NCBI GenBank assembly: GCA_964016885.1
Contig: OZ024763.1
Location: 23,374,001 to 23,438,000 of the forward strand
DNA: 64,000 bases
Reading direction: 5' to 3'
Origin: Eledone cirrhosa
Taxonomy: Eukaryota
Both the position numbers and the translations under genes were made by a program. Of the stretch, positions 3,774-60,265 are shown piece after piece. Each line of letters opens with the position of its first letter. Position 1 is the stretch's first letter. Under the pieces are notes generated by a model. It saw only the letters and a program-made list of their open reading frames with translations, made no database searches and was not told the DNA's origin.

Positions 3774-4736
3774 ATATTGAGCGAGATAAAGAAACTTTTC
3801 CCCAAAATTTGCTATAAGACCATAAAGAATGAGTGGCCAAAAGATGTATCTAATTGTTTTGATAATGAATGTAAGACATTGGTTGTAGCAGATGATTTCC
3901 AAAATGTATCGAAGGGAAATATCGAAGCAGATTTCAACAACTTCTATACAAATCTGCTTGTTTCTGACTACGTTAAACTCATAATGATTATCACTGGACC
4001 ATCAGAAAAGAAGCTTGATCTAGGAATCACACTTCACCTCAAACCACTCCAGGGGTTTGATTCCAACCAACTTTTCCAGCCATATTTACCTGAAAACTTA
4101 ACCTGTTCGGAAGATCTTGTCAATTTATGCTCCACGTTCTGCGACGATGTACCCGGAAGGATTGTGTCGTTGCGTAATAAACTGTTGCAGTGTCCTGCCA
4201 CTACCGACCCTAAAGAGATTTGTGAATTTCTATCGTCCATTTCAGACATCAATAGCTTTCTGCCTGAAAAATTTGCTGAGTCTTTTAAGCAATACCTCAA
4301 ACAGTTTTCCACAGAACAGCAAGAAACCCTTGCTAAACTGAGTTACTTTCCTGGTCAGTTCAGCCTCCATGATATGACAGCTTTGACAAATAATAAAGGA
4401 GGGGAACTGCAGACTAAATTCAATCTATTATATCCGTTAATGAACCAGGGCTTGATCAAGCCTATGGACCAAGCTAATACAGAGTTTGTGTTGCCACATG
4501 TCATACACCAATATTGCAGAAGCCACATGAAGCATGTCCTACATGAAGACAGTACCAAGTTGAAATTCAACCATATTATTGGAGAGGCTTTGATCGAGGC
4601 GGAGAGAATCAAAGAGAAGGGGTTACTCTACGATGTGACGGGAATATTTGAAAATAAGTGGCAGAGTTTCTCGCAGTTGATCAAGGAAGCCATTCACTCA
4701 GCTTCAGATGGAGAAAATTTTCAAATATATTGCAAG
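3774..4736 (+). CDS. Host gene exon a: C-terminal half of an NB-ARC/STAND-like NTPase plus winged-helix domain (gene 5'-incomplete)
   Basis: Acceptor ttcttcag|ATA and donor AAG|gtaggt; 963 nt, phase 0-0. Motifs occur in NB-ARC order: TLVVADD (Walker B), LIMIITG (sensor-1-like), LKPLQGFDSNQLF, FCDDVPGRI (GLPL position), LSYFPGQF, LMNQGLI..FVLPHVIHQY (MHD position). Confidence 0.85.
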
Positions 4737-8010: not shown

Positions 8011-8167
8011 GTAGCCGTAGAAGCTCGTGACATCATAACAACCTGTTTCCCTAAAGCTGCTAAAGAATTCTTCAAGTCCATTCTTGATGCCTCCAAGAGA
8101 CTTGGTACTGAACAACAGAAGGCTCTGCTCATGGTTTCCTATGGAAAATTCCTATCAGAAAACAACG
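8011..8167 (+). CDS. Host gene exon b
   Basis: Acceptor tatttcag|GTA and donor AACG|gtaaaa; 157 nt, phase 0-1; encodes VAVEARDIITTCFP..YGKFLSENN. Confidence 0.8.
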
Positions 8168-10505: not shown

Positions 10506-10653
10506 ACAGCCTCGCTATCAAGGAATCGCAGTGGCACCTGAAATCTGCTTTGGAAGTCCTTGAGGATCATGGGTGTTATTACCAGTGTTTGTGGATCTAC
10601 AACTATATGAGTTTGAACTACTACAGGCAGGGCAAACTGAAGAAGGGCATCAG
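10506..10653 (+). CDS. Host gene exon c (TPR-like helices)
   Basis: Acceptor ttttcacag|AC and donor CAG|gtaagc; 148 nt, phase 1-2; encodes DSLAIKESQWHLKSALEVLEDHGCYYQCLWIYNYMSLNYYRQGKLKKGI. Confidence 0.85.
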
Positions 10654-16738: not shown

Positions 16739-16848
16739 GTCTGCAGAGAAAGCTCTAGAAACAAATGTGTTTGATAGAAATACAGCTGATGTTGAACATG
16801 CGAAGACCTATTCCTATACATATCTCACACATAATCTTATCTTTGACG
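16739..16848 (+). CDS. Host gene exon d
   Basis: Long poly-T tract then gaag|GTC, and donor GACG|gtcagt; 110 nt, phase 2-1; encodes RSAEKALETNVFDRNTADVEHAKTYSYTYLTHNLIFD. Confidence 0.8.
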
Positions 16849-17939: not shown

Positions 17940-18053
17940 GTGACCATTCAAGAGCAGAATCAATTCTGCATACAACACTGTCCAGAGTTGAAGAATCTGG
18001 ACATCCGACTATTGGCTATATGCTTAATAACCTCGGACTTAATATTGAACGGA
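17940..18053 (+). CDS. Host gene exon e (TPR)
   Basis: Acceptor ttttttcag|GT and donor CGGA|gtaaga; 114 nt, phase 1-1; GDHSRAESILHTTLSRVEESGHPTIGYMLNNLGL contains the HP....LNNLG signature of kinesin-light-chain-type TPRs. Confidence 0.85.
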
Positions 18054-27454: not shown

Positions 27455-27475
27455 GTTGGTTAAAAGAGGAAGGAC

Positions 27476-29218: not shown

Positions 29219-30725
29219 TTCTATTAGTTTGCCGTAATAAATTTTTAACTGGAAAATTCGCCCCAAAAAGGGGCGAAAATAAATAAACTCAAAGTTTGAC
29301 GACCAAGGCAAGGGGTTAACGTATATTACAGTATAAAAAAATTAATCAAAACTCACTTTTTGAGTAAGTAAATCCGACTCGGTAGCCGAGCTTGTTCACA
29401 CACGTCAACACACGTCTCTCGTATACGAGATGTTATGTGAGATATTATGTGAGGTAAAGCCTTTACTGTGAAAATACAATAGTATATATAGAGTAATGTA
29501 AATGTTATGTGAGATATTATGTGAGGTACAGCCTTTACTGTGAAAATACAATAGTATATATAGAGTAATGTGAATGTTATGTGAGGTAAAGCCTTTACTG
29601 TGAAAATACAATAGTATATATAGAGTAATGTAAATGTTATGTGAGATATTATGTGAGGTAAAGCCTTTACTGTGAAAATACAATAGTATATATAGAGTAA
29701 TGTAAATGTTATGTGAGATATTATGTGAGGTAAAGCCTTTACTGTGAAAATACAATAGTATATATAGAGTAATGTAAATGTTATGTGAGATATTATGTGA
29801 GGTAAAGCCTTTACTGTGAAAATACAATAGTATATATAGAGTAATGTAAATGTTATGTGAGATATTATGTGAAGTAATTCCTTTACTGTGAAAATACAAT
29901 AGTATATATACAGTAATGTAAATGTTATGTGAGATATTATGTGAGGTAAAGCCTTTACTGTGAAAATACAATAGTATATATAGAGTAATGTGAATGTTAT
30001 GTGAGATATTATGTGAGGTAAAGCCTTTACTGTGAAAATACAATAGTATATATAGAGTAATGTGAATGTTATGTGAGATATTATGTGAGGTAAAGCCTTT
30101 ACTGTGAAAATACAATAGTACATATAGAGTAATGTGAATGTTATGTGAGATATTATGTGAGGTAAAGCCTTTACTGTGAAAATACAATAGTATATATAGA
30201 GTAATGTGAATGTTATGTGAGATATTATGTGAGGTAAAGCCTTTACTGTGAAAATACAATAGTATATATAGAGTAATGTGAATGTTATGAGATATTATGT
30301 GAGGTAAAGCCTTTACTGTGAAAATACAATAGTATATATAGAGTAATGTGAATGTTATGTGAGATATTATGTGAGGTAAAGCCTTTACTGTGAAAATACA
30401 ATAGTATATATAGAGTAATGTGAATGTTATGTGAGATATTATGTGAGGTAAAGCCTTTACTGTGAAAATACAATAGTATATATAGAGTGGTTTCTTTATT
30501 TGCCACTAGGGCACAAAAGGTAGGGACAGATACAAGGGGGGAAGTTTACATATAATTAACGAGTACAAAAATATAACAATGAAATAACAACAACAAACGA
30601 AGTCCTCAATAGGGAGGGGGCATTAACATGGGTCGCACACACCCCGGAAAAAATGTGTAACCCTTCTCCTCAGGAGCACAAAGAGTAGGTGCTTCCCTCG
30701 TCTCCTCTTTTTCCTCTTCTTTCAC

Positions 30726-33700
30726 CTACAGGCTGATATAGAGAGAAGACCCATTCACTCTGGCCATTCTCCCTACTTTCACCCACCTTTCATAAAACTT
30801 GCTGGGGTAGAGCACCTCTCTCTCCATTCTGATCCTTCTTTTAAAATGGTATTTGAAAAAGGGGACCAGTTGTTGGCCGGAGAGAAAGGTGTCTGACCTC
30901 AGCCCTTTCAGCCTCGTCCACCATACAACTTCTTTAGCCATGGCTATCACACAGAGAAAAACCGCCTCTCCTTCGTTTTTGAAAGGGGGAGGCGGTTTGA
31001 TCGTGACAATGGACTCGGTGGTCAACCGGATTGGTCCCACCCTCGACAGTAGTCGTTCCACATAGCCCCACAGGTCAGCAATGCCTGGGCAGTGTACGAA
31101 TGCGTGCGCAACGGTTTCGTCATCATGCACGCATCTCGGACAGATCTTATTCAAAGGATCTCTACCCAGGCTCCCATGCCTGTGGAGCTTGTCTCGAACG
31201 GGTAGAGCCCCTCGGTAGCACTGCCAAGCCAGGGACTTTTGGAAGTTGTCCATCGGTCCAGGGCCAAACGTCCTACCGAACAGACTGGCCAGTTCATCTT
31301 CCTCCATGCCTAGAGCTTCTCCGAGAGCATCGTCGCACCTGCTGCGTACCAACCCTCTATAGAATGTCGAGGTGGAGTCTCCACTGATTGCCGGGTCCGC
31401 TTTCCAGAGGGCCGTGAGCGCCTGGGCACATTCAATGTGCCAGTCGCCCACTTTTCTCGGTCTTTGCTTGACCCAGGATTGCAGCTCGGTGAGCGAGACG
31501 AGTCTGGGAAAGGCTCGCCTCACAAACGGGGCCCACACCGGTTGACCGGTGAGGAATACCTGGAGGTGCCGTAGCCTTAATGCGTGTTTACGCATCTGTA
31601 GCCACGGCATCCCCAGCCCTCCTTTCGAAGGGTGTTGACAGCAGATGGATCTCCTCACCAAAGGGGTCCGCTTGTTCCAAAGAAATTGGAACAGCGCGCA
31701 CTCCATTTTGGCGAGTCTTTTCACTGGGCAAGGCACGACGGTCAAGCGGTAGTAGATGACGGATGCTATATAAGTATTCGCCACCTCCGCTCGACCTTTC
31801 AGGGATAGTTTGCACTGGGCCCACTTCTGGGTGAGTGCAAACACCCTGGCCGTTACCTCGTTCCAGTTTTTCTCCACCTGGAGGTCTGGTCCGAACCAGA
31901 CCCCAAGCAGCTTCACCGGGCCCTCCGTCCAGCGTCCGACGACGTCGTTGGAGGGCATCGGTTTGCCTCTCCATGTTCCGAGTTGCAAACCGACGGACTT
32001 GTCCCGGTTCAGCTTGGCTCCTGTAAACCTTTCATATTCCTCCAGTAAGGTGCCGATCTCACCGATTTGCGAGGTTTTCGACACCATTACTGTCACGTCA
32101 TCGGCGTAGGCCGACGCCGCTTTCTGCAATCCCGGTTCCAAAGGGATGCCCTGCAACCGCTCCAACTTCCGCAGTAGTGGCTCAAGAGCCAGCACATACA
32201 GTAGGGAGGAGAGAGGGCATCCCTGTCGGATGGATCGCATGATTTGGAACGGCTCCGAGAGGTGGCCGTTCACCTTGACCCTTGAGCAGACGTTGCTGCT
32301 GTGCATCGCAGCAATCCAACCCCTGAAAACGGGTCCGAAGCCTGCCGCCGCGAGCACCGCATCCAGGTAACGATGGTCAACCCTATCGAAAGCTTTAGAT
32401 TGATCCAAGTTGATCAGGGCCCCACCAAAGCCGGGTTCATTCCCTACCCTCTCTATGATGTATCGCATAAGGTGGAGATTGTCGTGAATGGACCTGGATG
32501 GGATTGCGCATGTCTGCGCTTCTCCCACCAGGTTTCCAACGACAAGCGCCAACCTCTTCGCTAACACCTTGGCCAAAATCTTTAACTCTGTATTTAGCAG
32601 AGTTATGGGCCTGAAGTTACTTATGTCATCCCCCTTGTTCTCATCCTTCCTCACCAGCGTAACTACGCCCTTGGTCACAGAACTGGGAATTCTCCCGTTC
32701 TGCTGCCAGTTGCAGTAGACCGCTTCGAGGATATCGGAGAACAAGTCCGGCATCGCTACATATAGCTCGTATGGTAGACCATCGAGACCCGGGGATTTGC
32801 GTTTGCCGCATTGGCTCAGCGCCGCCCCTATCTCAGCAGCTGAAATCGTCCTTTCGCAGGACTTCGCCTCCGCGTCCGAGAGGCGCGGCAGACCGTCGAG
32901 GTATGGATTGAAATCCATAGTCTCACCCGGCGCGCCGCCCCTCTCGAACAGTCGTGCAAAGTGCCGCTGAAAGGCCGCACACATCTGCCCAGGTTCAAGG
33001 ATCACACGCCCATCCTGGTCCTTCAAAGACCGAATCGTGGACTTGTTCCCACTTTTTGCCTCTGTCACTCGGGCCCAGCTTACAGCTTTGGCTCCCTCAT
33101 TACCCAGAGCACGTATTTTACTCCTGACAACGCAGCCTTCATGCTTCACCTCAAAGAACTGGTCTAAGGCCATTCTTGATGCCAGCACGCCGGCTACATT
33201 GCCACTCCTAATCGCCTCTTCTACTCTATCTACTAATTCCCTTTCCGTCTTGTTCCTATCCCTTGCTAATTCCTGACTAAAACCTATCGATTCTATTCTA
33301 ATTGCTCTCTTAAGAGAGCTCCACCACCTGTTGTTGACAATTGCCCCTGTCAAACTCTGCTTGACTAACGTGCTAATCCGTTTACTGTAAGCTTTGCTTC
33401 TCGGTAAGGACAAGTTCAGCTTCCAGTAACCGGGTCCCTGTCTATGGGTTCTATCAAGGTTGGCTATGCAGGTCACTAACTTGTGATCCGAATAGTCAAC
33501 CATGAACATTTTTGGACAGCTAAATGTGTCCCTATCGTTCTCTCTAACTAGGACCCTATCTAGGTACGACCTAGATGTTCCACTGCGATTGGTCCACGTC
33601 CATAGTGGTACAGTCGGAAAATCTAGTCGATATCTATCGGCCAGGTCAAATCGGCCGATTAACCTTTTGAGGCTTTTACACCCCCCTCTATTGGCACATG

Positions 33701-34163
33701 CCCCTACATAGTCCCAACGTGCATCCAGGATACCATTCCAGTCCCCCACTAAAAGCAAGGAGCGGGACGTTCCCAGAAAAGTTTCCAGACGTTGGAAGTA
33801 TTCCGGCCGCGCTGCCCAAAAAGGGGCGTACACAGCTATTAGTCTAAGGGCTCCACTTTCACTACTGCCGACGTCTAAAACCACCAGTCGACCCTCCGGG
33901 TCCAGGTGCACCTTCTGTATGGCGAGGCCCAGGTGTTTTCGCAGCAGAACGACAACTCCACCCCCACCCCCCGGTTGACAGAGAGATGCGAAGATCTCAA
34001 AGTCGTCGAAGAGGGGCGCCAGTTGGTGCTCGCTGCTGATCCTGGACTCGCAAATAGCCATTACATCCATTCTATGCGACCTGAGATCGTTTAAAAGTTT
34101 GCCTTGTTTCCAAGACAGTCCCAGGCCACGTACATTCAGACACCCAACTCTTATATCAGCCAT
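30726..34163 (-). CDS. ORF2 of copy 2 (APE, RT, zinc finger; 1145 aa)
   Basis: Same motifs as copy 1; 4 amino-acid differences seen (K/E, S/F, T/S, V/I). Confidence 0.97.
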   Translation of the reverse strand: MADIRVGCLNVRGLGLSWKQGKLLNDLRSHRMDVMAICESRISSEHQLAPLFDDFEIFASLCQPGGGGGVVVLLRKHLGLAIQKVHLDPEGRLVVLDVGSSESGALRLIAVYAPFWAARPEYFQRLETFLGTSRSLLLVGDWNGILDARWDYVGACANRGGCKSLKRLIGRFDLADRYRLDFPTVPLWTWTNRSGTSRSYLDRVLVRENDRDTFSCPKMFMVDYSDHKLVTCIANLDRTHRQGPGYWKLNLSLPRSKAYSKRISTLVKQSLTGAIVNNRWWSSLKRAIRIESIGFSQELARDRNKTERELVDRVEEAIRSGNVAGVLASRMALDQFFEVKHEGCVVRSKIRALGNEGAKAVSWARVTEAKSGNKSTIRSLKDQDGRVILEPGQMCAAFQRHFARLFERGGAPGETMDFNPYLDGLPRLSDAEAKSCERTISAAEIGAALSQCGKRKSPGLDGLPYELYVAMPDLFSDILEAVYCNWQQNGRIPSSVTKGVVTLVRKDENKGDDISNFRPITLLNTELKILAKVLAKRLALVVGNLVGEAQTCAIPSRSIHDNLHLMRYIIERVGNEPGFGGALINLDQSKAFDRVDHRYLDAVLAAAGFGPVFRGWIAAMHSSNVCSRVKVNGHLSEPFQIMRSIRQGCPLSSLLYVLALEPLLRKLERLQGIPLEPGLQKAASAYADDVTVMVSKTSQIGEIGTLLEEYERFTGAKLNRDKSVGLQLGTWRGKPMPSNDVVGRWTEGPVKLLGVWFGPDLQVEKNWNEVTARVFALTQKWAQCKLSLKGRAEVANTYIASVIYYRLTVVPCPVKRLAKMECALFQFLWNKRTPLVRRSICCQHPSKGGLGMPWLQMRKHALRLRHLQVFLTGQPVWAPFVRRAFPRLVSLTELQSWVKQRPRKVGDWHIECAQALTALWKADPAISGDSTSTFYRGLVRSRCDDALGEALGMEEDELASLFGRTFGPGPMDNFQKSLAWQCYRGALPVRDKLHRHGSLGRDPLNKICPRCVHDDETVAHAFVHCPGIADLWGYVERLLSRVGPIRLTTESIVTIKPPPPFKNEGEAVFLCVIAMAKEVVWWTRLKGLRSDTFLSGQQLVPFFKYHFKRRIRMEREVLYPSKFYERWVKVGRMARVNGSSLYISL

Positions 34164-34184
34164 GTTGGTTAAAAGAGGAAGGAC

Positions 34185-35918
34185 CTACCTGTTCGGCTCC
34201 TGAGGAGCAGGTTGCACAATATCCATGGGCGTATTGGAGGGGTTGTTTGGTGGGGTGTTGTTCTGTGGTGGAGTGGGGGTGTTTGGTGAGGTGTGGGTGG
34301 GGAAACGTTTCAAGAGGACGCGGTTATAGGGTCGAGTACATGTTTTCCCCACGTCCTCAGGAAAGTTCTCTCTTAGTTTTGCATAGGTGTCCATTGGGAG
34401 TCTTATCATTTTTAAATGCGGTTTGTTGGCCGCGCTTGCAAAGAATTGTCCTTCAGTTTCCACCAAAGGGTCTTTGTGTATTGTTTTTACTAGTTCTTTG
34501 TTATTTGTGTTAATGTATGTATACTGTTTTATTTGTGTTGTGTTTGTTTGTTGTTCTTGTGTGTGCTTACGTTTTGTTGTATGTGTTATGTTTTGGGGTG
34601 GGGCGGATTTTGTTTGTTCTGTTTGTTTTGTTTTTGTTGGTGGTTGTGTGTTTGTTTCGTTTATGTTCGAGTGGTGCTTTCTTTTTTTCCTTTTTACAGG
34701 TTGGAAGGGTTCCCCCTCTTCGTCACTAGGTGCCGTTTCCGCTGGGTCCTCGTCCGTGCTGTCGGGTAGTGGTGTATTTTGGGGTTTTGTTGTATTTGTG
34801 TGTGTTTTGGGAGTTGTTTTGGGTGGGGCCGTGTCTTGTGTTATTTTTCCCTGTTGTTTTTGTTGTTGTTGTGGTGGTGGTGGTGGAGGTGGTGGTGGTG
34901 GCGGTGGTGGTGTGTGGAGTGTAGGCAAAAGAGCCTTTTTTTTTGTCAATTGAGGACAAGCAGCCCTTAGATGACCCCTGCTTGAACAGTAGTAACATAT
35001 GGGCCTCCTACCCTCGGCTGAAATATATATAAATGTTTCTCCATCGAGGGACACCCTCTGTGGTATTCTAGCGATTCGTTCTGGTCTCATTTGGACCAGA
35101 ACCTCCACGCTCAAACCGCCGAAAACGTCTGTGGTGACTTCTCCTACTGAGAGGATTCCGTCCTCGTCTTCTAAAAACCCTGTTAGTACCCAGGAAATGC
35201 ATGCATTTGGCCGGATTCCGGAGACCCTTATCTTCTGCGTTCTTTTCCCTAAATATGTGGGGAAAAATGTATGTAGCTTGGAAACAATTGGTGCCACAGA
35301 GTATTTCCTGGCCGTCAATTGATCCTTCATTAGGACCGTTATATTCCCATAGAGTGGCCCTTTTTGTATGAACGATATATCACTCCACACATTTTTTAGG
35401 ACCAGCTCAATCTCTTTTTGGGATAATTGAGTTGGTTTCCTTGTTATGTTGGAAATTGTTCTGAAAGATATCGTTCTTAGCGTCGTGTCTCTTTTGATTT
35501 CTTGTGGGGAGGTGATTGTGAAGTCTCCTCCTTCTTTGAAAGTTACATACTGTTTCGCTTCCTTCATCTTTTCTCTCAGAGTTGTAATGTCCAGTTGCTT
35601 GCAGGTTTGTGTTTTCCGGACCGCCTGTGCAAAGGAGGTACCAGTAGTGGGTTCGCTTTGTTTGGTGTTATCGTTATTTTTTCCTTGGTTGGTGTTGTGA
35701 CTATTGCTGTTATTGTCGTTGTTGTTTTTGTCTGCGTTTATGTGACTTTCTGGGTTTTCACCCATTTTTTCAAATTTTTCTTTTAATTCCGTGTTCCATG
35801 TTTCTTTTGCAGAAGTCAGGAGGGAAGACTTAGAGCCTTGTGCTTCTAGCTTCTCTGTATCACCTTTCTTAGGGGGCGTGGCTTTCACGTTAGGATGAGA
35901 TGTGAAAATTCCGTCCAT
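34185..35918 (-). CDS. ORF1 of copy 2 (577 aa from first ATG)
   Basis: CCHC knuckle; differs from copy 1 by P/L, E/G and three prolines. Confidence 0.9.
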   Translation of the reverse strand: MDGIFTSHPNVKATPPKKGDTEKLEAQGSKSSLLTSAKETWNTELKEKFEKMGENPESHINADKNNNDNNSNSHNTNQGKNNDNTKQSEPTTGTSFAQAVRKTQTCKQLDITTLREKMKEAKQYVTFKEGGDFTITSPQEIKRDTTLRTISFRTISNITRKPTQLSQKEIELVLKNVWSDISFIQKGPLYGNITVLMKDQLTARKYSVAPIVSKLHTFFPTYLGKRTQKIRVSGIRPNACISWVLTGFLEDEDGILSVGEVTTDVFGGLSVEVLVQMRPERIARIPQRVSLDGETFIYISAEGRRPICYYCSSRGHLRAACPQLTKKKALLPTLHTPPPPPPPPPPPPPQQQQKQQGKITQDTAPPKTTPKTHTNTTKPQNTPLPDSTDEDPAETAPSDEEGEPFQPVKRKKRKHHSNINETNTQPPTKTKQTEQTKSAPPQNITHTTKRKHTQEQQTNTTQIKQYTYINTNNKELVKTIHKDPLVETEGQFFASAANKPHLKMIRLPMDTYAKLRENFPEDVGKTCTRPYNRVLLKRFPTHTSPNTPTPPQNNTPPNNPSNTPMDIVQPAPQEPNR

Positions 35919-37116
35919 TTCTATTAGTTTGCCGTAATAAATTTTTAACTGGAAAATTCGCCCCAAAAAGGGGCGAAAATAAATAAACTCAAAGTTTGAC
36001 GACCAAGGCAAGGGGTTAACGTATATTACAGTATAAAAAAATTAATCAAAACTCACTTTTTGAGTAAGTAAATCCGACTCGGTAGCCGAGCTTGTTCACA
36101 CACGTCAACACACGTCTCTCGTATACGAGATGTTATGTGAGATATTATGTGAGGTAAAGTCTTTACTGTGAAAATATAATAGTATATATAGAGTAATGTG
36201 AATGTTATGTGAGATATTATGTGAGGTAAAGCCTTTACTGTGAAAATACAATAGTATATATAGAGTAATGTAAATGTTATGTGAGATATTATGTGAGGTA
36301 AAGACTTTACTGTGAAAATACAATAGTATATATAGAGTAATGTAAATGTTATGTGAGATATTATGTGAGGTAAAGACTTTACTGTGAAAATACAATAGTA
36401 TATATAGAGTAATGTAAATGTTATGTGAGATATTATGTGAAGTAAAGTCTTTACTGTGAAAACAGTATATATAGAGTAATGTAAATGTTATGTGAGATAG
36501 TATGTGAGGTAAAGACTTTACTGTGAAAATACAATAGTATATATAGAGTAATGTAAATGTTATGTGAGGTAAAGCCTTTACTGTGAAAATACAATAGTAT
36601 ATATAGAGTAATGTAAATGTTATGTGAGATATTATGTGAGGTAAAGCCTTTACTGTGAAAATACAATAGTATATATAGAGTAATGTAAATGTTATGTGAG
36701 ATATTATGTGAGGTAAAGCCTTTACTGTGAAAATACAATAGTATATATAGAGTAATGTAAATGTTATGTGAGATATTATGTGAAGTAATTCCTTTACTGT
36801 GAAAATACAATAGTATATATAGAGTAATGTAAATGTTATGTGAGATATTATGTGAAGTAATTCCTTTACTGTGAAAATACAATAGTATATATAGAGTAAT
36901 GTAAATGTTATGTGAGATATTATGTGAAGTAATTCCTTTACTGTGAAAATACAATAGTATATATAGAGTAATGTAAATGTTATGTGAGATATTATGTGAG
37001 GTAAAGCCTTTACTGTGAAAATACAATAGTATATATAGAGTAATGTAAATGCTAAAGGTTTATGGTAGAGTTTTAAAACTATGGTAATGAATATGTTTTT
37101 CTACTAACGTTTCTAG

Positions 37117-37260
37117 GGGGTGGTTCACCAGAGTTGGCGTTGAAGTACTATCTATCTTCGTTGTGTCGGAAAAGAACTGTAGCCTGTATCCATGAACACA
37201 TCTTGGTACCAACGTTGTGTAATGTCGCTGGTCAGTTTTCCAAGCACAAGCTTCGACACG
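37117..37260 (+). CDS. Host gene exon f (TPR)
   Basis: Branch point TACTAAC near 37102, acceptor ttctag|GG and donor CACG|gtaagg; 144 nt, phase 1-1; encodes RGGSPELALKYYLSSLCRKRTVACIHEHILVPTLCNVAGQFSKHKLRH. Confidence 0.85.
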
Positions 37261-37805: not shown

Positions 37806-37917
37806 ATTTGGCCTTAAAGTTCTTGTGGGAAGCTAAAGAGATACGGAAGCGCTGTGGCTGGGTGCATTCCTACACTGCACTGGTTCTGTGGAACATTGGA
37901 ATGGTTACCATGAGAAT
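37806..37917 (+). CDS. Host gene exon g (TPR)
   Basis: Acceptor ctccag|AT and donor AAT|gtaaga; 112 nt, phase 1-2; encodes DLALKFLWEAKEIRKRCGWVHSYTALVLWNIGMVTMR. Confidence 0.85.
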
Positions 37918-40062: not shown

Positions 40063-40324
40063 GGGTTGCCCTGCGAAAGCCCTTCCCGATCTCTGCGAAG
40101 CTGTCACAATGTACAACCGGGTGAATCCTAAACACTATGTTAATGCCGAGGTAAGGATCTGGTTGGCACACTGTGCCCATGTGGTGGGGGACACTGCAAG
40201 AATGCAGGGGCTTCTATTAGAAGTCTTGGAAAACAAGGATGACTTTATGCAGTTGCGACCCCTCAGTGAAGCAGTCAGCTGCATTTTGGAGCACTTCGTC
40301 AGATTCAGTACGGAAAACCCTGTG
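40063..40324 (+). CDS. Host gene exon h (TPR-like/helical)
   Basis: Acceptor attgtag|G and donor GTG|gtaagc; 262 nt, phase 2-0; encodes MGCPAKALPDLCEAVTMYNRVNPKH..RFSTENPV. A competing in-frame donor exists after 40150. Confidence 0.75.
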
Positions 40325-46415: not shown

Positions 46416-46501
46416 TATTGCTTTAAAAATAAAATAATAATTTGAACTAACAGCCAAAAAAAACAAAAAACATATATATATCTTTTATTTATTTTACCCA
46501 G

Positions 46502-49500
46502 AAACGCCTTCACTATTTGACACTTCTTATCTCTGAACTAAAGAGGTTGAGCGCCCATCCGTTGGTCTCCAGTGAAAAGCAGGACAGTTACAAACAGTTC
46601 TGTGATTGGTATGGAAAAGTGATGAATAATCTGGAAAGAAACTCCTTGTCTAAGGTTCATCTCCTGGAACTTCCCTTCACCTGTCTTCCATGTCGAGAAA
46701 TCGTCAAGTTTAAAATATGTGACGAAGATATCTATGTCAAAAGTCTCTGCAACATTTATTCCCAGAGAGTTTCTAGACAGCATGCGATTTTGTTTGACTC
46801 TGTTTCTCAGAAAGTTTACGAAGAGCAGGCCACACAGCTACAACATGGGTTACCTCCCCTTGCTGCTCCTTTTTCCGAGAGAGTTTGCAAAGAGCAGGAA
46901 ATTCAGCTACAGCATGGATTACCTCCCCCTCGGTGTGTTTCCGAGAGAGTTTACAAAGACCAGGCAATGCAGCTACATCATAAGTTATCTCCCCCTGCTT
47001 CTGTTTCCGAGAGAGTTTACAAAGGACAGGAAATTCAGCTACAACATGGATTACCTCCCTCTCGTGTTTCCGAGAGAGTTTACCAAGAGCAGGCCATACA
47101 GTTACATGAGTTATCTCCCCCTGCTTCTACTTCTCAGAGATTTTACAGAGACCAGGCAATGCAGCTACATGGTTTATCTTCTGTTTACCAAGAGCAAGCC
47201 ACACTGCTACAACATGGATTACCTCCCCCTGCCGCTCCTGTTTCCGAGGGAATTTACAAAGAACAGGAAATTCAGCTACAACATGGGTTATCTCCCTTTG
47301 CTGCTCCTGTTTTCGAGAGAGTTTACAAAGAGCAGACAACACATGGGTTATCTCCCCCTGCTTCTGTTTCTCAGAGAGTTTACTACAAAGAAGAGGAAAT
47401 TCAGCTACAACATGGATTACCTCCCTCTCATGTTTCCGAGAGAGTTTACCAAGAGCAGGCCATACAGTTACAACATGAGTTATCTCCCCCTGCTTCTACT
47501 TCTCAGAGATTTTACAGAGACCAGGCAATGCAGCTACATGGGTTATCTTCTCCTGTTTCCCAGAAAGTTTACCAAGAGCAAGCCACACTGCTACAACATG
47601 GGTTACCTCCTGCTGCCGCTCCTGTTTCAGAGAGATTTTACAAAGACCAGGCAATGCAGCTACATGAGTTATCTTCTCCTGTTTCTGAGAAAGTTCACCA
47701 AGAGCAGGAAATGCTGTTACCACATGGCTTACTTCCCTCTGCTTCTGTTTCCGAGAGAGTTTACAAAGGAGAGGAAATTCAGCTACAACATGGATTACCT
47801 CCCTCTCGTGTTTCCGAGAGAGTTTACCAAGAGCAGGCCATACAGTTACAACATGAGTTATCTCCCCCTGCTTCTACTTCTCAGAGATTTTACAGAGACC
47901 AGGCAATGCAGCTACATGGTTTATCTTCTGTTTACCAAGAGCAAGCCACACTGCTACAACATGGCTTACCTCCCCCTGCCGCTCCTGTTTCCGAGGGAAT
48001 TTACAAAGACCAGGCAATGCAGCTACATGTGTTATCTTCTCCTGTTTCTGAGAAAGTTCACCAAGAGCAGGAAATGCTGTTACCACATGGCTTACTTCCC
48101 TCTGCTGTTTCCGAGAGAGTTTACAAAGGACAGGAAATTCACCTACAACATGGATTACCTCCCTCTCGTGTTTCCGAGAGAGTTTACCAAGAGCAGGCCA
48201 TACAGTTACAACATGAGTTATCTCCCCCTGCTTCTACTTCTCAGAAATTTTACAGAGACCAGGCAATGCAGCTACATGGTTTATCTTCTCCTGTTTCCCA
48301 GAAAGTTTACCAAGAGCAAGCCACACTGCTACAACATGGGTTACCTCCCGCTTCCGCTCCTGTTTCCGAGGGAATTTACAAAGACCAGGCAATGCAGCTA
48401 CATGTGTTATCTTCTCCTGTTTCTGAGAAAGTTCACCAAGAGCAGGAAATGCTGTTACCACATGGCTTACTTCCCTCTGCTTCTGTTTCCGAGAGAGTTT
48501 ACAAAGGACAGGAAATTCAGCTACAACATGGATTACCTCCCTCTCGTGTTTCCGAGAGAGTTTACCAAGAGCAGGCCATACAGTTACATCAGTTATCTCC
48601 CCCTGCTTCTACTTCTCAGAGATTTTACAGAGACCAGGCAATGCAGCTACATGGGTTATCTTCTCCTGTTTCCCAGAAAGTTTACCAAGAGCAAGCCACA
48701 CTGCTACAACATGGGTTACCTCCTGCTGCCGCTCCTGTTTCAGAGAGATTTTACAAAGACCAGGCAATGCAGCTACATGAGTTATCTTCTCCTGTTTCTG
48801 AGAAAGTTCACCAAGAGCAGGAAATGCTGTTACCACATGGCTTACTTCCCTCTGCTTCTGTTTCCGAGAGAGTTTACAAAGGAGAGGAAATTCAGCTACA
48901 ACATGGATTACCTCCCTCTCGTGTTTCCGAGAGAGTTTACCAAGAGCAGGCCATACAGTTACAACATGAGTTATCTCCCCCTGCTTCTACTTCTCAGAGA
49001 TTTTACAGAGACCAGGCAATGCAGCTACATGGTTTATCTTCTGTTTACCAAGAGCAAGCCACACTGCTACAACATGGCTTACCTCCCCCTGCCGCTCCTG
49101 TTTCCGAGGGAATTTACAAAGACCAGGCAATGCAGCTACATGTGTTATCTTCTCCTGTTTCTGAGAAAGTTCACCAAGAGCAGGAAATGCTGTTACCACA
49201 TGGCTTACTTCCCTCTGCTGTTTCCGAGAGAGTTTACAAAGGACAGGAAATTCACCTACAACATGGATTACCTCCCTCTCGTGTTTCCGAGAGAGTTTAC
49301 CAAGAGCAGGCCATACAGTTACAACATGAGTTATCTCCCCCTGCTTCTACTTCTCAGAAATTTTACAGAGACCAGGCAATGCAGCTACATGGTTTATCTT
49401 CTCCTGTTTCCCAGAAAGTTTACCAAGAGCAAGCCACACTGCTACAACATGGGTTACCTCCCGCTTCCGCTCCTGTTTCCGAGGGAATTTACAAAGACCA

Positions 49501-51871
49501 GGCAATGCAGCTACATGTGTTATCTTCTCCTGTTTCTGAGAAAGTTCACCAAGAGCAGGAAATGCTGTTACCACATGGCTTACTTCCCTCTGCTTCTGTT
49601 TCCGAGAGAGTTTACAAAGGACAGGAAATTCAGCTACAACATGGATTACCTCCCTCTCGTGTTTCCGAGAGAGTTTACCAAGAGCAGGCCATACAGTTAC
49701 ATCAGTTATCTCCCCCTGCTTCTACTTCTCAGAGATTTTACAGAGACCAGGCAATGCAGCTACATGGGTTATCTTCTCCTGTTTCCCAGAAAGTTTACCA
49801 AGAGCAAGCCACACTGCTACAACATGGGTTACCTCCTGCTGCCGCTCCTGTTTCAGAGAGATTTTACAAAGACCAGGCAATGCAGCTACATGAGTTATCT
49901 TCTCCTGTTTCTGAGAAAGTTCACCAAGAGCAGGAAATTCTGTTACCACATGGCTTACTTCCCTCTGCTTCTGTTTCCGAGAGAGTTTACAAAGGACAGG
50001 AAATTCAGCTACAACATGGATTACCTCCCTCTCGTGTTTCCGAGAGAGTTTACCAAGAGCAGGCCATACAGTTACAACATGAGTTATCTCCCCCTGCTTC
50101 TACTTCTCAGAGATTTTACAGAGACCAGGCAATGCAGCTACATGGTTTATCTTCTGTTTACCAAGAGCAAGCCACACTGCTACAACATGGGTTACCTCCC
50201 CCTGCCGCTCCTGTTTCCGAGGGAATTTACAAAGACCAGGCAATGCAGCTACATGTGTTATCTTCTCCTGTTTCTGAGAAAGTTCACCAAGAGCAGGAAA
50301 TGCTGTTACCACATGGCTTACTTCCCTCTGCTGTTTCCGAGAGAGTTTACAAAGGACAGGAAATTCACCTACAACATGGATTACCTCCCTCTCGTGTTTC
50401 CGAGAGAGTTTACCAAGAGCAGGCCATACAGTTACAACATGAGTTATCTCCCCCTGCTTCTACTTCTCAGAAATTTTACAGAGACCAGGCAATGCAGCTA
50501 CATGGGTTATCTTCTCCTGTTTCCCAGAAAGTTTACCAAGAGCAAGCCACACTGCTACAACATGGGTTACCTCCCGCTTCCGCTCCTGTTTCCGAGGGAA
50601 TTTACAAAGACCAGGCAATGCAGCTACATGTGTTATCTTCTCCTGTTTCTGAGAAAGTTCACCAAGAGCAGGAAATGCTGTTACCACATGGCTTACTTCC
50701 CTCTGCTTCTGTTTCCGAGAGAGTTTACAAAGGACAGGAAATTCAGCTACAACATGGATTACCTCCCTCTCGTGTTTCCGAGAGAGTTTACCAAGAGCAG
50801 GCCATACAGTTGCAACATGGGTTACTTCCTTCTCGTGTTCCTGAGAAAGTTTACCAAGAACAGGAAATGCAACTACATCATAACTTACCTCCTGTTTCCG
50901 AGAGAAGGGCAATGCAGGCAAAACATAAGTTATCTTCCCCTGTTCCTCCTTCTCAGAGACTTTTCAAAGAACAGGCAATGCAGCTACAATATGGGTTATC
51001 TTCTGTTTCCCAGAAAGTTGACAATGAACAGGCCATACAGTTACAACATGAGTTATATCCCCCTGCTTCTGTTTCTCAGCGAGTTTACAATGAACAGGCA
51101 ATGCAGTTACAACATGGGTTATCTCCCTTTTCCGCTCCTGTTCCTGAGAGAGTTTACAAAGTGCAGGCAATGCAGACAAAACATGGGTTACCTCCCCCTG
51201 ATTCTCCTGTTTCTCACAGAGAGGCAATGCAATTCCGCCATGGATTATCTCCTTCTGTCTACCATAAATTTCAGTCTCAATGTCTTCCGGCTAACATCAG
51301 CTACATGAATGATGATTTCACAAACATTGCTTCCAATGTTTCCATAGGACATGAGTTGTCTCTACCCAATATCTCACTCTTGAAAAATGATGTCAATGTT
51401 GGGAGTTTTTCTAAAAGTAAAAGTGAAGCCGGAATGAATTCTAACGTGCAACCATTTAGTAATTTTGAGGAAACAAAAATGGAAAAATATGTACTAGTTC
51501 CCAATTTTGATAAAGACAAAATTCTTCCAACAAACGAAAATCTAAAGAATTCAGACATCGTGCCTTTTCCATCCACACTAAACGATAAATCTGACTATTC
51601 TAACTTCTATCCCACTGCCTGCAAAACCCCCAAAAGTGATCATATAATGTCTTTTACCAGCCTTGAGAAAAAACCCATTGCTGGATTTGGTGCTTTGCAT
51701 GAAGGGGAAGTCCCTAGTTTTTCGTTTCCTGAAGTGTCTGATCAATATTCCTTAGAGGCTCTTTTAGCATTGTCTTGTTCAGGTCAATACTCTGGAGATT
51801 TCCAAACAGATGAAAGACGTTCTGGAGAGTTCCAGTCACTCAGGGGACAACCGATTGAACATAATGATTGA
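46502..51871 (+). CDS. Host gene terminal exon i: ~100 aa unique, ~1490 aa tandem repeat, ~200 aa tail
   Basis: Acceptor ttttacccag|AAA in phase 0, in frame with ORF 46517-51871; encodes KRLHYLTLLISELKRL...; stop TGA; AATAAA at 51961 and ~53030-53046. Confidence 0.8.
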   Translation, partial: KRLHYLTLLISELKRLSAHPLVSSEKQDSYKQFCDWYGKVMNNLERNSLSKVHLLELPFTCLPCREIVKFKICDEDIYVKSLCNIYSQRVSRQHAILFDSVSQKVYEEQATQLQHGLPPLAAPFSERVCKEQEIQLQHGLPPPRCVSERVYKDQAMQLHHKLSPPASVSERVYKGQEIQLQHGLPPSRVSERVYQEQAIQLHELSPPASTSQRFYRDQAMQLHGLSSVYQEQATLLQHGLPPPAAPVSEGIYKEQEIQLQHGLSPFAAPVFERVYKEQTTHGLSPPASVSQRVYYKEEEIQLQHGLPPSHVSERVYQEQAIQLQHELSPPASTSQRFYRDQAMQLHGLSSPVSQKVYQEQATLLQHGLPPAAAPVSERFYKDQAMQLHELSSPVSEKVHQEQEMLLPHGLLPSASVSERVYKGEEIQLQHGLPPSRVSERVYQEQAIQLQHELSPPASTSQRFYRDQAMQLHGLSSVYQEQATLLQHGLPPPAAPVSEGIYKDQAMQLHVLSSPVSEKVHQEQEMLLPHGLLPSAVSERVYKGQEIHLQHGLPPSRVSERVYQEQAIQLQHELSPPASTSQKFYRDQAMQLHGLSSPVSQKVYQEQATLLQHGLPPASAPVSEGIYKDQAMQLHVLSSPVSEKVHQEQEMLLPHGLLPSASVSERVYKGQEIQLQHGLPPSRVSERVYQEQAIQLHQLSPPASTSQRFYRDQAMQLHGLSSPVSQKVYQEQATLLQHGLPPAAAPVSERFYKDQAMQLHELSSPVSEKVHQEQEMLLPHGLLPSASVSERVYKGEEIQLQHGLPPSRVSERVYQEQAIQLQHELSPPASTSQRFYRDQAMQLHGLSSVYQEQATLLQHGLPPPAAPVSEGIYKDQAMQLHVLSSPVSEKVHQEQEMLLPHGLLPSAVSERVYKGQEIHLQHGLPPSRVSERVYQEQAIQLQHELSPPASTSQKFYRDQAMQLHGLSSPVSQKVYQEQATLLQHGLPPASAPVSEGIYKDQAMQLHVLSSPVSEKVHQEQEMLLPHGLLPSASVSERVYKGQEIQLQHGLPPSRVSERVYQEQAIQLHQLSPPASTSQRFYRDQAMQLHGLSSPVSQKVYQEQATLLQHGLPPAAAPVSERFYKDQAMQLHELSSPVSEKVHQEQEILLPHGLLPSASVSERVYKGQEIQLQHGLPPSRVSERVYQEQAIQLQHELSPPASTSQRFYRDQAMQLHGLSSVYQEQATLLQHGLPPPAAPVSEGIYKDQAMQLHVLSSPVSEKVHQEQEMLLPHGLLPSAVSERVYKGQEIHLQHGLPPSRVSERVYQEQAIQLQHELSPPASTSQKFYRDQAMQLHGLSSPVSQKVYQEQATLLQHGLPPASAPVSEGIYKDQAMQLHVLSSPVSEKVHQEQEMLLPHGLLPSASVSERVYKGQEIQLQHGLPPSRVSERVYQEQAIQLQHGLLPSRVPEKVYQEQEMQLHHNLPPVSERRAMQAKHKLSSPVPPSQRLFKEQAMQLQYGLSSVSQKVDNEQAIQLQHELYPPASVSQRVYNEQAMQLQHGLSPFSAPVPERVYKVQAMQTKHGLPPPDSPVSHREAMQFRHGLSPSVYHKFQSQCLPANISYMNDDFTNIASNVSIGHELSLPNISLLKNDVNVGSFSKSKSEAGMNSNVQPFSNFEETKMEKYVLVPNFDKDKILPTNENLKNSDIVPFPSTLNDKSDYSNFYPTACKTPKSDHIMSFTSLEKKPIAGFGALHEGEVPSFSFPEVSDQYSLEALLALSCSGQYSGDFQTDERRSGEFQSLRGQPIEHND
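46800..51260 (+). repeat. Coding tandem repeat: 19-23-aa units, 6-unit blocks (360-378 bp), 1113-bp higher-order repeat x~3
   Basis: Antisense ORF landmarks recur at exact 1113-bp offsets (47496/48609/49722; 47874/48987/50100; 48234/49347/50460). Confidence 0.95.
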
Positions 51872-56607: not shown

Positions 56608-59600
56608 CACAATTTCCCTCCCCCCCACCCCCACACACCACCATAGTCTATTCGACCAATCAAACCTAGCATGCCATTTCCACTGCTGCTGCTACTACCT
56701 GCCTAACTAACTCTCTCCTCCTCTGGCGCATCCCAACACACCCTGCCATTACCCCACCACCACTGTTCTTCTAGCTCTCAATTTTCCCACCGTTATGGAT
56801 GGATGAGCTGGGAATACACGAGCAACTCTGAATCAATAGATGAAATATGAATCTGCGAGCTACCAAGCACCCACGTGAAGCGCCAACCCAGAGACCCTCC
56901 CCTGCGAGTGTCGACAAATGCCCAAAACTCCGAGTTGGTACCATCAATGTAGGCTCAATGAAAGGAAGAGCAGGAGAAATCGTAGAAATGCTAGAGCGAA
57001 AGGAAGTTGATGTATGCTGTGTGCAAGAGACTAGATGGAGAGGAGGGTCTGCTAGAGTCCTTGTAGGAAAAAGCCAGTGCTACAAATTTTTCTGGGTGGG
57101 AAATGACGATGGGATGGGTGGTGTAGGTATACCATTAGCTGACAAGTGGGTAGATAAAGTAATCTCAGTGTACAGGGTAAATGCAAGAATCATTAAACTC
57201 AGACTAGTCCTGAATAAGACAATTACCACAATAATATCAGCTTACGCACCCCAATCGGGGCTGCCAGACGAACTTAAGGATAGGTTTTACGAGTCCCTAA
57301 TACACACTACTGCTCTAACAGACGACAAGGACTTCCTAATCATTGCAGGAGATTTTAACGGACACGTAGGTAAACACTGCGACGGCTTCAATAGAGTACA
57401 TGGAGGCCATGAAGTTGGCACAAGGAATGAGGAAGGATTCAGACTTCTAGAATTCTGCGACGCCAATGACATGTCGATATGTAACACAAACTTTAAAAAA
57501 CCCGACAACCACCTGATCACCTATAGATCAGGGGAGCACTCTAGTCAGTTAGATTTTATCCTCATCAGAGGACGTGACAGATGGACGGTCGTAAACACAA
57601 AAGCCTTCCCTAGTGAGGAATGTACATCCCAACATAGCTTAGTTGTCAGCGACCTCACGGTCAGAACTAGACGAGCCCTGAAACAGAGGCCAACCTGGAG
57701 AAGAAAGATCTGGAAGCTGAAAGTCCTCTCAACCAGTAACAGATTTAAAGATATTTTACTCAACGCCTACGACAGTAAAGAAGAACAGATAGAGACATTT
57801 AACGTAGAAGAGAACTGGGAGTTCCTAAAAAATAACTTACTAGAGGCGACGGATGAGGTTTGTGGCTGGAGTAAGACCTCAAGCAGGAGGAGAGTGACTT
57901 GGTGGTGGAACAATAAGGTAGATGAAGCAGTCAAGGCCAAGAGACAGGCATGGAAAGAATGGAAGAACGGGGGGAGCAGGGTACATTACATAGAGACCAA
58001 GAGGGAAGCTAGGCGACAAGTATACTTAGCTAGGAGGGAAGCAGAGGATAGAAAATTCAAGCATGTTTTACAACGTGAGGACCAGAAACAGGAGGTATTC
58101 AAGATTGCGAGGCAGTGTGTCAGAGATAGTTGTGATGTCATTGGAGAGAAGTGTATCCGGAATGATAAAGGTGAGCTTGCCCTCACAAGTGCTGAGAAGA
58201 AAGATGCATGGAAGAGTCATTATGATAGATTACTAAATGAGGAGAATGCATGGGAAGAAGAGACCCTACCCCACGTAGACCCTATAGAGGGACCAGCAGT
58301 ACAAGTCAGCGGCAGCGTAGTAAGTAAGGCAATCAGAGATATGAAGATAGGGAAGGCAACCGGTCCATCGGGTATAGCTGCCGAGATGCTGAAGGCATCT
58401 GGGTCTGTAGGTCACACTATAACCACACGTATCGTTAACCAGGTAATACTAGAGGGGGCCATACCAAAAGATTGGTGCAGTAGCATCATTGTCAACTGCT
58501 ACAAAGGTAAAGGCGATGCACTAGATAGAGGAAACTATAGAGGTATAAAGTTGATGGACCAGGTCATGAAAGTAACAGAAAGAGTTATAGCACAGCTGAT
58601 TAGGGACCGGGTGAATATAGACGAGATGCAATTTGGGTTTGTACCAGGGAAAGGCACCACTGATGCCCTCTTCCTTGTGAGGCAATTACAGGAAAAGTAC
58701 CTGACTAAAAGTAAGCCACTCTACTTGGCATTTGTCGACCTTGAGAAAGCCTTTGACAGAGTTCCACGTGCAGTAATCTGGTGGGCTCTTAGAAAACTAG
58801 GAGTAGATGAATGGCTTGTGAAAGCGGTACAAGCCATGTATAGGGGAGCAGTCAGCAAAGTTAGGATTGGCAATGAGTATAGCGAGGAATTTAGCGTACA
58901 GGTTGGGGTCCACCAGGGCTCTGTTCTTAGCCCTCTCCTGTTCATCATAGTCCTGCAGGCAATAACGGAGGAGTTTAAGACCGGATGCCCATGGGAACTC
59001 CTGTATGCTGATGACCTCGCACTCATAGCTGAATCTATGGTAGAACTAGAGAATAAATTCCAAACCTGGAAGCAGGGACTAGAGAGAAAGGGCCTCAAAG
59101 TCAACATGACAAAGACTAAGGTCCTTATAAGTAGACGAGAAAACAGAACCCAGATCCCCTCAGGGAAATGGCCTTGCTCAGTATGTAGGAAAGGTGTAGG
59201 TAGGAACTCCATTCTCTGCCCCAAATGCAAACAATGGGTACACAAGAGATGTAGCGGGATCTCAGGAAGCTTAATTAAGAATGTAGGATTCACATGCAGC
59301 AGCTGTGCTGAAACAGCAAGCAAACAGCCACAGGAAACAAGTACCACCAATCTCTGGGAGGGCTCTGTAGAAACAGTAGACAGCTTCTGCTACCTAGGTG
59401 ACCGAATTAGCAACGGAGGTGGGTGCTCAGAAAGTACAATAACTAGGGTAAGAACGGGATGGAAGAAGTTTAGGGAACTACTACCACTGCTAGCTGCAAA
59501 AGGCTTCTCCCTCAGAATGAAAGGCAGACTGTATGATGCGTGTATCCGAACAGCGATGTTGCATGGTAGTGAGACCTGGGCGCTGAAGGTGGAAGACTTA

Positions 59601-60265
59601 CGTAGATTAGAGAGAAACGAAGCCTGCATGCTCCGATGGATGTGTAACAGTAATATACGTGAACGACAAAGCATAAAGGAATTGAGAGAGAGACTGAGCA
59701 TAAGAGGAATCAAATGCTGCGTGCAGGAGAGGCGGTTACGCTGGTATGGACATGTGATGCGTATGAAGGATGACAGCTGCATAAAAAGGTGCAGAGCACT
59801 AGAAGTTGATGGAAACCGCGGAGTGGGGAGACCCAAGATGACTTGGGATGAGGTGATAAAAGCCGACCTTACCCAACTACACCTCTCAAAGTCAATGACA
59901 CACGACCGTGACTTCTGGCGTCACGCAGTAATACAGGGTACCCGACCTCCCATGGGTACATGCTGAAGCATATAAACAATATGCCCCCCCCCCCCCACCG
60001 CAAGGTGGTCGTGGAGGTGCCACGGCAAAAAAGCACCCAGCCCACACTGTAAAGTGGACGTGTAGGCGCCACGAAAAAGCACCCAGCACTCACTGTAAAT
60101 GAGGTTGGTGTTAGGAAGGGCATCCAGCTGTAGAAATCAAGCCAGATCAGTTCCTGTATGAGCAAGGCATGGTCAGCCGACCAGACACTGCCCACAACAG
60201 GACAACCCGTCTAACCCATGCTAGCGTGGAAGAACGGACGTAAAACGGTGATGATGATGATGATG
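54264..60265 (+). mobile_element. Apparently full-length RTE-clade LINE; 5' boundary inferred to include the 393-bp array
   Basis: Single intact ORF, 3' UTR and (GAT)n tail ending ~60265; the two flanks rejoin into the contiguous sequence seen at 40840-40940 (-). Confidence 0.75.
56847..59966 (+). CDS. RTE ORF: APE endonuclease, RT and PHD-like finger (1039 aa)
   Basis: GTINVGSM, CVQETRW, SAYAPQ, GDFNGHVG, LDFIL, SQH; YRGIKL, QFGF, FVDLEKAFD, QGSVLSP, LYADD; C4HC3 finger; RRLRWYGHV. Confidence 0.97.
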   Translation: MNLRATKHPREAPTQRPSPASVDKCPKLRVGTINVGSMKGRAGEIVEMLERKEVDVCCVQETRWRGGSARVLVGKSQCYKFFWVGNDDGMGGVGIPLADKWVDKVISVYRVNARIIKLRLVLNKTITTIISAYAPQSGLPDELKDRFYESLIHTTALTDDKDFLIIAGDFNGHVGKHCDGFNRVHGGHEVGTRNEEGFRLLEFCDANDMSICNTNFKKPDNHLITYRSGEHSSQLDFILIRGRDRWTVVNTKAFPSEECTSQHSLVVSDLTVRTRRALKQRPTWRRKIWKLKVLSTSNRFKDILLNAYDSKEEQIETFNVEENWEFLKNNLLEATDEVCGWSKTSSRRRVTWWWNNKVDEAVKAKRQAWKEWKNGGSRVHYIETKREARRQVYLARREAEDRKFKHVLQREDQKQEVFKIARQCVRDSCDVIGEKCIRNDKGELALTSAEKKDAWKSHYDRLLNEENAWEEETLPHVDPIEGPAVQVSGSVVSKAIRDMKIGKATGPSGIAAEMLKASGSVGHTITTRIVNQVILEGAIPKDWCSSIIVNCYKGKGDALDRGNYRGIKLMDQVMKVTERVIAQLIRDRVNIDEMQFGFVPGKGTTDALFLVRQLQEKYLTKSKPLYLAFVDLEKAFDRVPRAVIWWALRKLGVDEWLVKAVQAMYRGAVSKVRIGNEYSEEFSVQVGVHQGSVLSPLLFIIVLQAITEEFKTGCPWELLYADDLALIAESMVELENKFQTWKQGLERKGLKVNMTKTKVLISRRENRTQIPSGKWPCSVCRKGVGRNSILCPKCKQWVHKRCSGISGSLIKNVGFTCSSCAETASKQPQETSTTNLWEGSVETVDSFCYLGDRISNGGGCSESTITRVRTGWKKFRELLPLLAAKGFSLRMKGRLYDACIRTAMLHGSETWALKVEDLRRLERNEACMLRWMCNSNIRERQSIKELRERLSIRGIKCCVQERRLRWYGHVMRMKDDSCIKRCRALEVDGNRGVGRPKMTWDEVIKADLTQLHLSKSMTHDRDFWRHAVIQGTRPPMGTC

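Follow-up and report, generated by a model that had tools for sequence, protein, structure and literature searches.

A coding tandem repeat in the terminal exon of a predicted octopod STAND-like ATPase gene, with 55 YxxQ motifs likely descended from one founder unit

STAND proteins form multimers, with effector domains placed at one end or the other, and the GxP motif together with the winged-helix histidine are among the motifs described for them in the available part of PMC6468293. A bona fide animal NLR combines a NACHT domain with leucine-rich repeats, as defined in the accessible text of PMC3879445. PH0952 (PDB 6MFV), MalT, Apaf-1 and plant NLRs have the same P-loop, helical domain, winged helix and arm as are predicted for the protein described here, with TPRs as the sensor in PH0952 and MalT. 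In cytokine signalling, gp130 is a JAK-bound membrane receptor with four distal STAT sites (PMC13203501, in part), while fly Domeless contains a YXXQ that "may represent" a STAT92E site, in the words of the portion of PMC4751595 consulted. The tails of gp130 and Drosophila Domeless present YxxQ in a cytoplasmic, probably disordered chain, as does the present protein. MUC1-type protein-coding VNTRs, as far as the sources available in part describe them, consist of in-frame head-to-tail units within one large exon, as is also observed here.

The window analysed in this study is a stretch of 64,000 nucleotides from Eledone cirrhosa (contig OZ024763.1, positions 23,374,001 to 23,438,000, forward strand), and all positions given below are counted from its first letter. 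The host gene is likely an octopod gene of ten exons, predicted from sequence to encode a 2,498-aa STAND-like ATPase with TPR repeats; orthologues place nine of the exons inside the window and one upstream of it. The last exon contains a long array of YxxQ-bearing repeats, which the initial annotation had read as a candidate multivalent STAT/SH2 scaffold. We assign a probability of about 0.68 to a different reading, namely that the array is a coding tandem repeat in which the 55 YxxQ motifs likely come from one founder unit and are not kept for STAT binding. The features of the gene are as follows.

Coding exon 1, L002:2130-2246, upstream of the window: carries the ATG and the Walker A motif GQPSVGKT.
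Coding exon 2, 3774..4736, plus strand: Walker B region (LVVADD), predicted helical domain, winged helix and arm.
Coding exon 3, 8011..8167, plus strand: arm/TPR, mapped by orthologue.
Coding exon 4, 10506..10653, plus strand: TPR, mapped by orthologue.
Coding exon 5, 16739..16848, plus strand: TPR, mapped by orthologue.
Coding exon 6, 17940..18053, plus strand: TPR, mapped by orthologue.
Coding exon 7, 37117..37260, plus strand: TPR, mapped by orthologue.
Coding exon 8, 37806..37917, plus strand: TPR, mapped by orthologue.
Coding exon 9, 40063..40324, plus strand: TPR, mapped by orthologue.
Last coding exon, 46502..51871, plus strand: 5,370 nt, a single open frame of 1,789 codons and a stop.
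CxxC motif, 46682..46693, plus strand: end of the folded core, placed by alignment.
Coding minisatellite, 46814..51260, plus strand: 71 units of 42-69 nt (14-23 residues) and a degenerate last unit.
Higher-order core of the array, units 10-65, 47378..50848, plus strand: a six-unit repeat of ~375 bp, itself part of an 18-unit repeat of 1,113 bp.
AGFGAL motif, 51680..51697, plus strand: in frame 3' of the array, common to both octopod orthologues.
C-terminal RGQPIEHND and stop, 51842..51871, plus strand: matches the orthologue ends RRQPTEHED and RREPSEHEE.

Two full-length orthologues, as proteins only, were used for comparison: Octopus sinensis LOC115224678 (XP_036369719.1), 57% identical over exon 2 by tblastn, and Argonauta hians GAB1602180.1, 55% identical over the same exon. 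The O. sinensis orthologue, which is matched by exons 3-10, contains TPR_12 (E 2e-12) and gives weak P-loop matches to AAA_16/ATPase_2 that stay below the Pfam cut-offs. The domain fold of the exon 2 region was taken from a model of the core of this orthologue (first 828 residues, pLDDT 88.8), in which helical and winged-helix domains of the NOD fold are predicted. With this core, Foldseek returned PH0952 (6mfv_A) as the best match (E 1.1e-9, TM-score 0.30/0.37), followed by plant NB-ARC resistosomes and Apaf-1; the domains are arranged differently from those of known STANDs, hence the low TM-scores. A sequence search of the PDB with an O. sinensis isoform gave no match.

Motifs of the nucleotide-binding core appear degenerate in the window protein. 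The GxP motif reads GVP in O. sinensis, GLP in many relatives and DVP here. At a site which we take to be the sensor-1 arginine position, the window protein has IITGP and no arginine, whereas many relatives have TSR or TSQ, and LPHV stands instead of the winged-helix histidine motif. Neither NACHT nor LRR was matched in the two orthologues and 13 relatives, and so the window protein, judged by its domains, is not a bona fide NLR. The description "NLR-like sensor" in the initial annotation holds in a loose sense, for a STAND-like ATPase with TPRs. A folded effector domain was found at neither end, and all four O. sinensis isoforms begin at the ATPase; one more coding exon may lie further upstream.

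A few observations on the surroundings of the gene may be recorded here. In the Octopus vulgaris gene model P0007, exon 1 runs straight into exon 3 and the ATPase exon of 963 nt is left out; the model stops after exon 8 and is either an isoform or an annotation error. Intron 6 contains on the minus strand two near-identical LINE copies (24017-29341 and 30726-36041), presumably L1/Tx1-like. Each has an open ORF1 of 620 aa, in which a CCHC knuckle is seen by eye, and an ORF2 of 1,152 aa that codes for an endonuclease-reverse transcriptase. The junction with a 72-bp satellite falls at the same sequence in both copies, and the pair reflects either a tandem duplication of 6.7 kb or the insertion of a site-specific element. 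Further elements lie at 20234-20833 (minus strand), a fragment we take to be of a mariner-like transposase, and at 56844-59966 (plus strand), an ORF of 1,040 aa presumably from an RTE-like LINE.

The eight in-window exons that precede the last exon join without any stop, and the plus-strand frame around the last exon is open from 46451 to 51871. In run X2 (88 million letters), the match of a 2,660-nt contig begins at 46501, one base before the last exon, and 2,137 letters of that contig precede 46502, as compared to 2,127 nt of summed upstream coding exons; contigs of runs X1 and X3 begin to match at 46497. Since the X2 contig starts to match at the acceptor and its upstream length approximates that of the upstream coding exons, the last exon is probably spliced into a transcript that reaches the first few array units. 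Reading through beyond the array is suggested by the uninterrupted frame and by the C-terminal motifs shared with the orthologues. Most of the aligned family members long enough to cover it, from cephalopods to bivalves, retain the CxxC that directly follows the TPRs, a possible metal or redox site.

The units of the array were defined by cutting at the motif, which yields 70 units and one without its first residues. Among these 71 units, 55 carry YxxQ, 9 HxxQ and 3 YxxE (two YKGE, one YKEE), while CxxQ, FxxQ and DxxQ occur once each and one unit has no motif. The YxxQ kinds are YQEQ (22), YKDQ (10), YRDQ (10), YKGQ (8), YKEQ (2) and one each of YEEQ, YNEQ and YKVQ; the first lies at 46817 and the last at 51155, and between 46800 and 51260 they take up 55 of the 61 tyrosines. 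The earlier by-eye count of about 50 motifs in about 70 units was thus correct in number and kinds. The accompanying figure of one HQEQ in six units agrees with the higher-order core, where HQEQ occupies one entire slot of the six-unit repeat; overall, the proportion is 1 in 8.

The repeat order reveals how these copies arose. Only 33 of the units are distinct at the nucleotide level. Units compared at lag 6 have a mean identity of 97.8%; at lag 18 the mean rises to 99.7%, with no difference at all in 31 of 37 units, and at an offset of 1113, 1000 of 1000 bases match. A single unit of 57-69 nt gave rise to six types. Copying of the six-unit block followed, and that of an 18-unit block came last and very recently; the independent information in the array amounts to six unit types and 15 flanking units. 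All 23 genome matches to a piece of the array fell inside the array itself (one candidate region was scored). Residue shuffling gives an expectation of 8.5 YxxQ, and none of 2000 shuffles reached 55; this significance is invalid because the units are copies of one another and hence non-independent. A founder unit of the array's composition would contain YxxQ by chance in ~12% of cases.

The Pfam matches on the last exon (DUF538, VCX_VCY, Zincin_2, Avr2) were rejected as repeat artefacts, as no stretch passes alone, and no credible Pfam domain was found in the tail. A single-sequence model of a 248-residue tail piece gave pLDDT 44.8, and taken with the composition this weak model suggests that the tail is probably disordered. 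As a source of the unit, a single-copy YGLPPS segment of O. sinensis was considered and set aside: it gives the top profile score, but this score is reached by 27 of 300 shuffles and Argonauta has no such segment, so that a YGLPPS origin may serve as a lead only.

Selection appears to act on the reading frame of the array, which has been kept along with the absence of stops while the residues drift. Unit lengths are 42, 54, 57, 63, 66 and 69 nt only, all whole codons, and the probability of meeting no stop after ~100 point changes is 0.004. The 14 other minisatellites in the window served for comparison: seven vary in length by steps other than multiples of three, two by multiples of three only and four not at all, and one was unreadable with the anchor used. 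On the plus strand a second frame is also open from 46626 to 51308 (1,560 codons). A founder unit would be open in this frame 86% of the time, the probability of its staying open is 0.049, and it was rejected as a hidden gene, its openness being probably inherited from the founder.

The residues themselves were examined by codon tests on 19 columns of 31-33 short related units, omitting the variable part between the prolines. Tyrosine is kept in 26 of 32 distinct units and the glutamine at +3 in 30 of 33, but L+11 (33/33), H+9 (32/33), L+7 (30/32), S-4 (29/32) and V-5 (26/32) are retained to a similar or greater degree. According to the initial annotation, the middle residues vary and Y and Q persist, which holds against positions +1 and +2 (8 and 6 events, compared with 4 at Y and 2 at Q) and does not hold against L+11, H+9, L+7 and S-4. 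On a tree of 31 units, parsimony counts 69 nonsynonymous and 24 synonymous events, with an omega of 1.19 (p 0.50 vs neutrality); dN/dS between units ranges from 0.76 to 1.19, pairwise pN/pS is 0.196/0.258, and a tree-free count gives 1.11 derived alleles per non-degenerate site and 1.00 per fourfold site. The events at Y (4 vs 3.8 expected) and Q (2 vs 3.4), jointly 6 vs 7.1 expected (p 0.43), show no excess conservation beyond the neighbouring positions, in tests of low power; this is an outcome that the initial annotation had itself named as refuting its scaffold. Event counts across columns are not overdispersed (p 0.34). Tyrosine has been replaced in four separate ways, by H, C, F and D, with the His form amplified to nine copies. 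Residues between units thus change at the neutral rate.

Neutral simulation equals the observed retention of Y in 30% of runs and of Q in 21%. Its median of 35 YxxQ in 71 units lies below the 55 seen, a number reached in 12% of runs (p 0.12); this shortfall leans to retention of Y and Q and is not significant. The best-kept columns are H+9 (p 0.022) and L+11 (p 0.050), both uncorrected over 19 columns.

Comparison with the orthologues places the array in its family context. The octopod orthologues match the window gene exon by exon and have the same CxxC, AGFGAL and C-terminal motifs, but their arrays consist of other units (~27-32 residues) located 3' of AGFGAL, whereas the window array lies 5' of it. 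Neither has an array between CxxC and AGFGAL, and in this segment one of 8 tyrosines in O. sinensis and none of 5 in Argonauta lie in YxxQ; the motifs are accordingly not conserved in place. After AGFGAL, 12 of 40 O. sinensis tyrosines are in YxxQ (4.9 expected, p 0.001, although these are repeat copies), as are 6 of 31 in Argonauta (2.5 expected, p 0.034), and the young Argonauta array has 2 of 19 (1.7 expected). The O. sinensis and Argonauta arrays have in common an older subunit of ~10 residues, so that the YxxQ motifs of the orthologues can come by descent. At the Q-3 position of this subunit, Octopus has Y in 18 of 29 cases, many then with H rather than Q, and Argonauta has D in 7 of 20 and Y in 4 of 20.

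Beyond the octopods, a wider family of uncharacterised NB-ARC-like proteins with TPRs extends to gastropods and bivalves (Patella, Haliotis, Lottia, Pecten, Batillaria), and these molluscan members are without a YxxQ array. Out of 46 other aligned rows, 21 have tails of at least 60 residues, the Argonauta row included, and many homologues have a short tail or none. In the 21 tails, 14 of 182 tyrosines lie in YxxQ (10.9 expected), and without Argonauta the remaining 20 give 8 of 146 (8.4 expected). All three octopod tails hold at least 6 YxxQ, compared with 0-2 in the 20 others. Regarding the opposite end, the N-terminus of P0017 (Lottia gigantea) has by eye a VQIG segment that we presume to be RHIM-like, though Pfam gives no RHIM match, and P0037 begins with what we take to be a death-fold-like start; some relatives may have N-terminal effectors missing from the octopod proteins.

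The array has the form of a coding minisatellite, with in-frame head-to-tail units in what is apparently a spliced exon. Common descent of the units, which the initial annotation had allowed as an alternative, explains the data through six- and 18-unit copying and neutral residues. Unequal crossing-over or slippage would have copied the units, with selection acting only for reading through to the conserved C-terminal motifs, and the repeat would be a disordered spacer whose length is tolerated. With PH0952, MalT and Apaf-1 as models, one would expect the folded core to act as an ADP/ATP switch, staying ADP-bound until the TPRs sense a ligand and then oligomerising and carrying the tail along. 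Against descent from a founder as the whole account, a multivalent array could tolerate motif loss in single units.

It is possible, although unlikely, that composition rather than motif is the functional property, such that a long chain of aromatic and histidine stickers with Q/S/P spacers condenses upon oligomerisation of the core and the exact motif is interchangeable. In all three octopod orthologues the same exon contains expanded arrays rich in Tyr, His, Gln and Ser, located at two different positions, and this reading would also accommodate the kept frame with drifting residues, the place of H+9 and L+11 as best-kept columns and the failure to find a folded effector. It fits poorly with the many homologues that have little or no tail, and L+11 is encoded by TTA in 33 of 33 units, so that the invariance of its synonymous third base points to descent.

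The scaffold idea of the initial annotation, worked out as a core that oligomerises, clustered tails that are phosphorylated by a tyrosine kinase and STAT docking at pYxxQ with an output that scales with copy number, is considered improbable. In its favour, the 55 motifs are mostly spaced 19-23 residues apart on what is probably a disordered chain, an acidic residue precedes 36 of the tyrosines by no more than three positions, STANDs multimerise with effectors at either end, and the Domeless YXXQ offers an invertebrate candidate site. Its best remaining point is the higher count of YxxQ in all three octopod tails than in the 20 others, from which it could be argued that in octopod STAND-TPR proteins a C-terminal phosphotyrosine tail is the effector, kept by motif turnover in independently expanded arrays; this too we regard as improbable. 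If true, an oligomerised NLR-like sensor would recruit STAT directly without a cytokine receptor. Y and Q without extra conservation, the missing array at the same place in the orthologues, the near-chance YxxQ content of the young Argonauta array and the D-rich Q-3 position of its older subunit all stand against the scaffold.

The candidate partner was also sought in the genome. A STAT_bind profile search gave no match, and the STAT_linker profile then located one STAT gene, a count that is a lower bound.

STAT gene, L010, L012 and L013, on G000:C8 at ~40.14-40.17 Mb, minus strand: located by the STAT_linker profile.

The best matches of its two SH2 exons are STAT5A/B and STAT6, an assignment in line with the available part of PMC13203501. 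The SH2 pocket was mapped by eye on section 3.2 of PMC6895964, the portion consulted. Six pocket positions are of STAT5 type (betaC3 I, betaD3 W, betaD4 N, betaD5 L, BC1 L, BC3 Y) and two of STAT3 type, namely a basic residue at betaC7 and Tyr at DB'1, the latter pair favouring the scaffold. STAT5 prefers a hydrophobic pY+3 according to PMC3670284, as far as its available text goes, and no array site has one; on the other side stands the YXXQ of fly Domeless. The evidence from the putative partner leans against pYxxQ docking. At the STAT locus, two candidate GY-containing exon pieces lie downstream. With mostly STAT5-type pocket positions, no extra conservation of Y and Q, and no array in place in the orthologues, the STAT-amplifier reading is improbable.

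That the array is a non-coding satellite or an assembly-inflated stretch outside the protein is highly improbable, for although minisatellites abound in the genome, the 1,113-bp blocks match each other exactly over 1,000 bases, a second frame is open too and RNA cover is seen only for the start of the last exon, one open frame leads from the conserved TPR end through the array to the conserved C-terminal motifs, its indels are whole codons only, and the 2,660-nt X2 contig begins to match at the splice acceptor with an upstream length that fits the coding exons. The copy number in the assembly could be off by whole blocks.

Overall, we present a molluscan STAND-TPR gene, as yet uncharacterised, in whose last exon tandem arrays have arisen more than once among octopods. 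The array is also a clear example of how copying alone can make a short motif look conserved. Should the tail dock STAT after all, it would connect an NLR-like sensor to JAK/STAT without a receptor and with a valency that can be tuned. In titles and abstract starts, with subscription papers outside the search, no such connection was seen, nor any work dealing with this family or with a STAND protein that bears a YxxQ array. As compared to PH0952, MalT and Apaf-1, the window protein continues after its TPRs into a low-complexity tail of 1,700 residues, with no folded effector found. As compared to gp130, the tail has 55 tandem-duplicated copies that are not conserved in place and have no known kinase link, and the STAT of the same species is STAT5/6-like, unlike the STAT3 docking of gp130. 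As compared to MUC1, the array has a nested six- and 18-unit order and is carried on a likely intracellular STAND-like protein.
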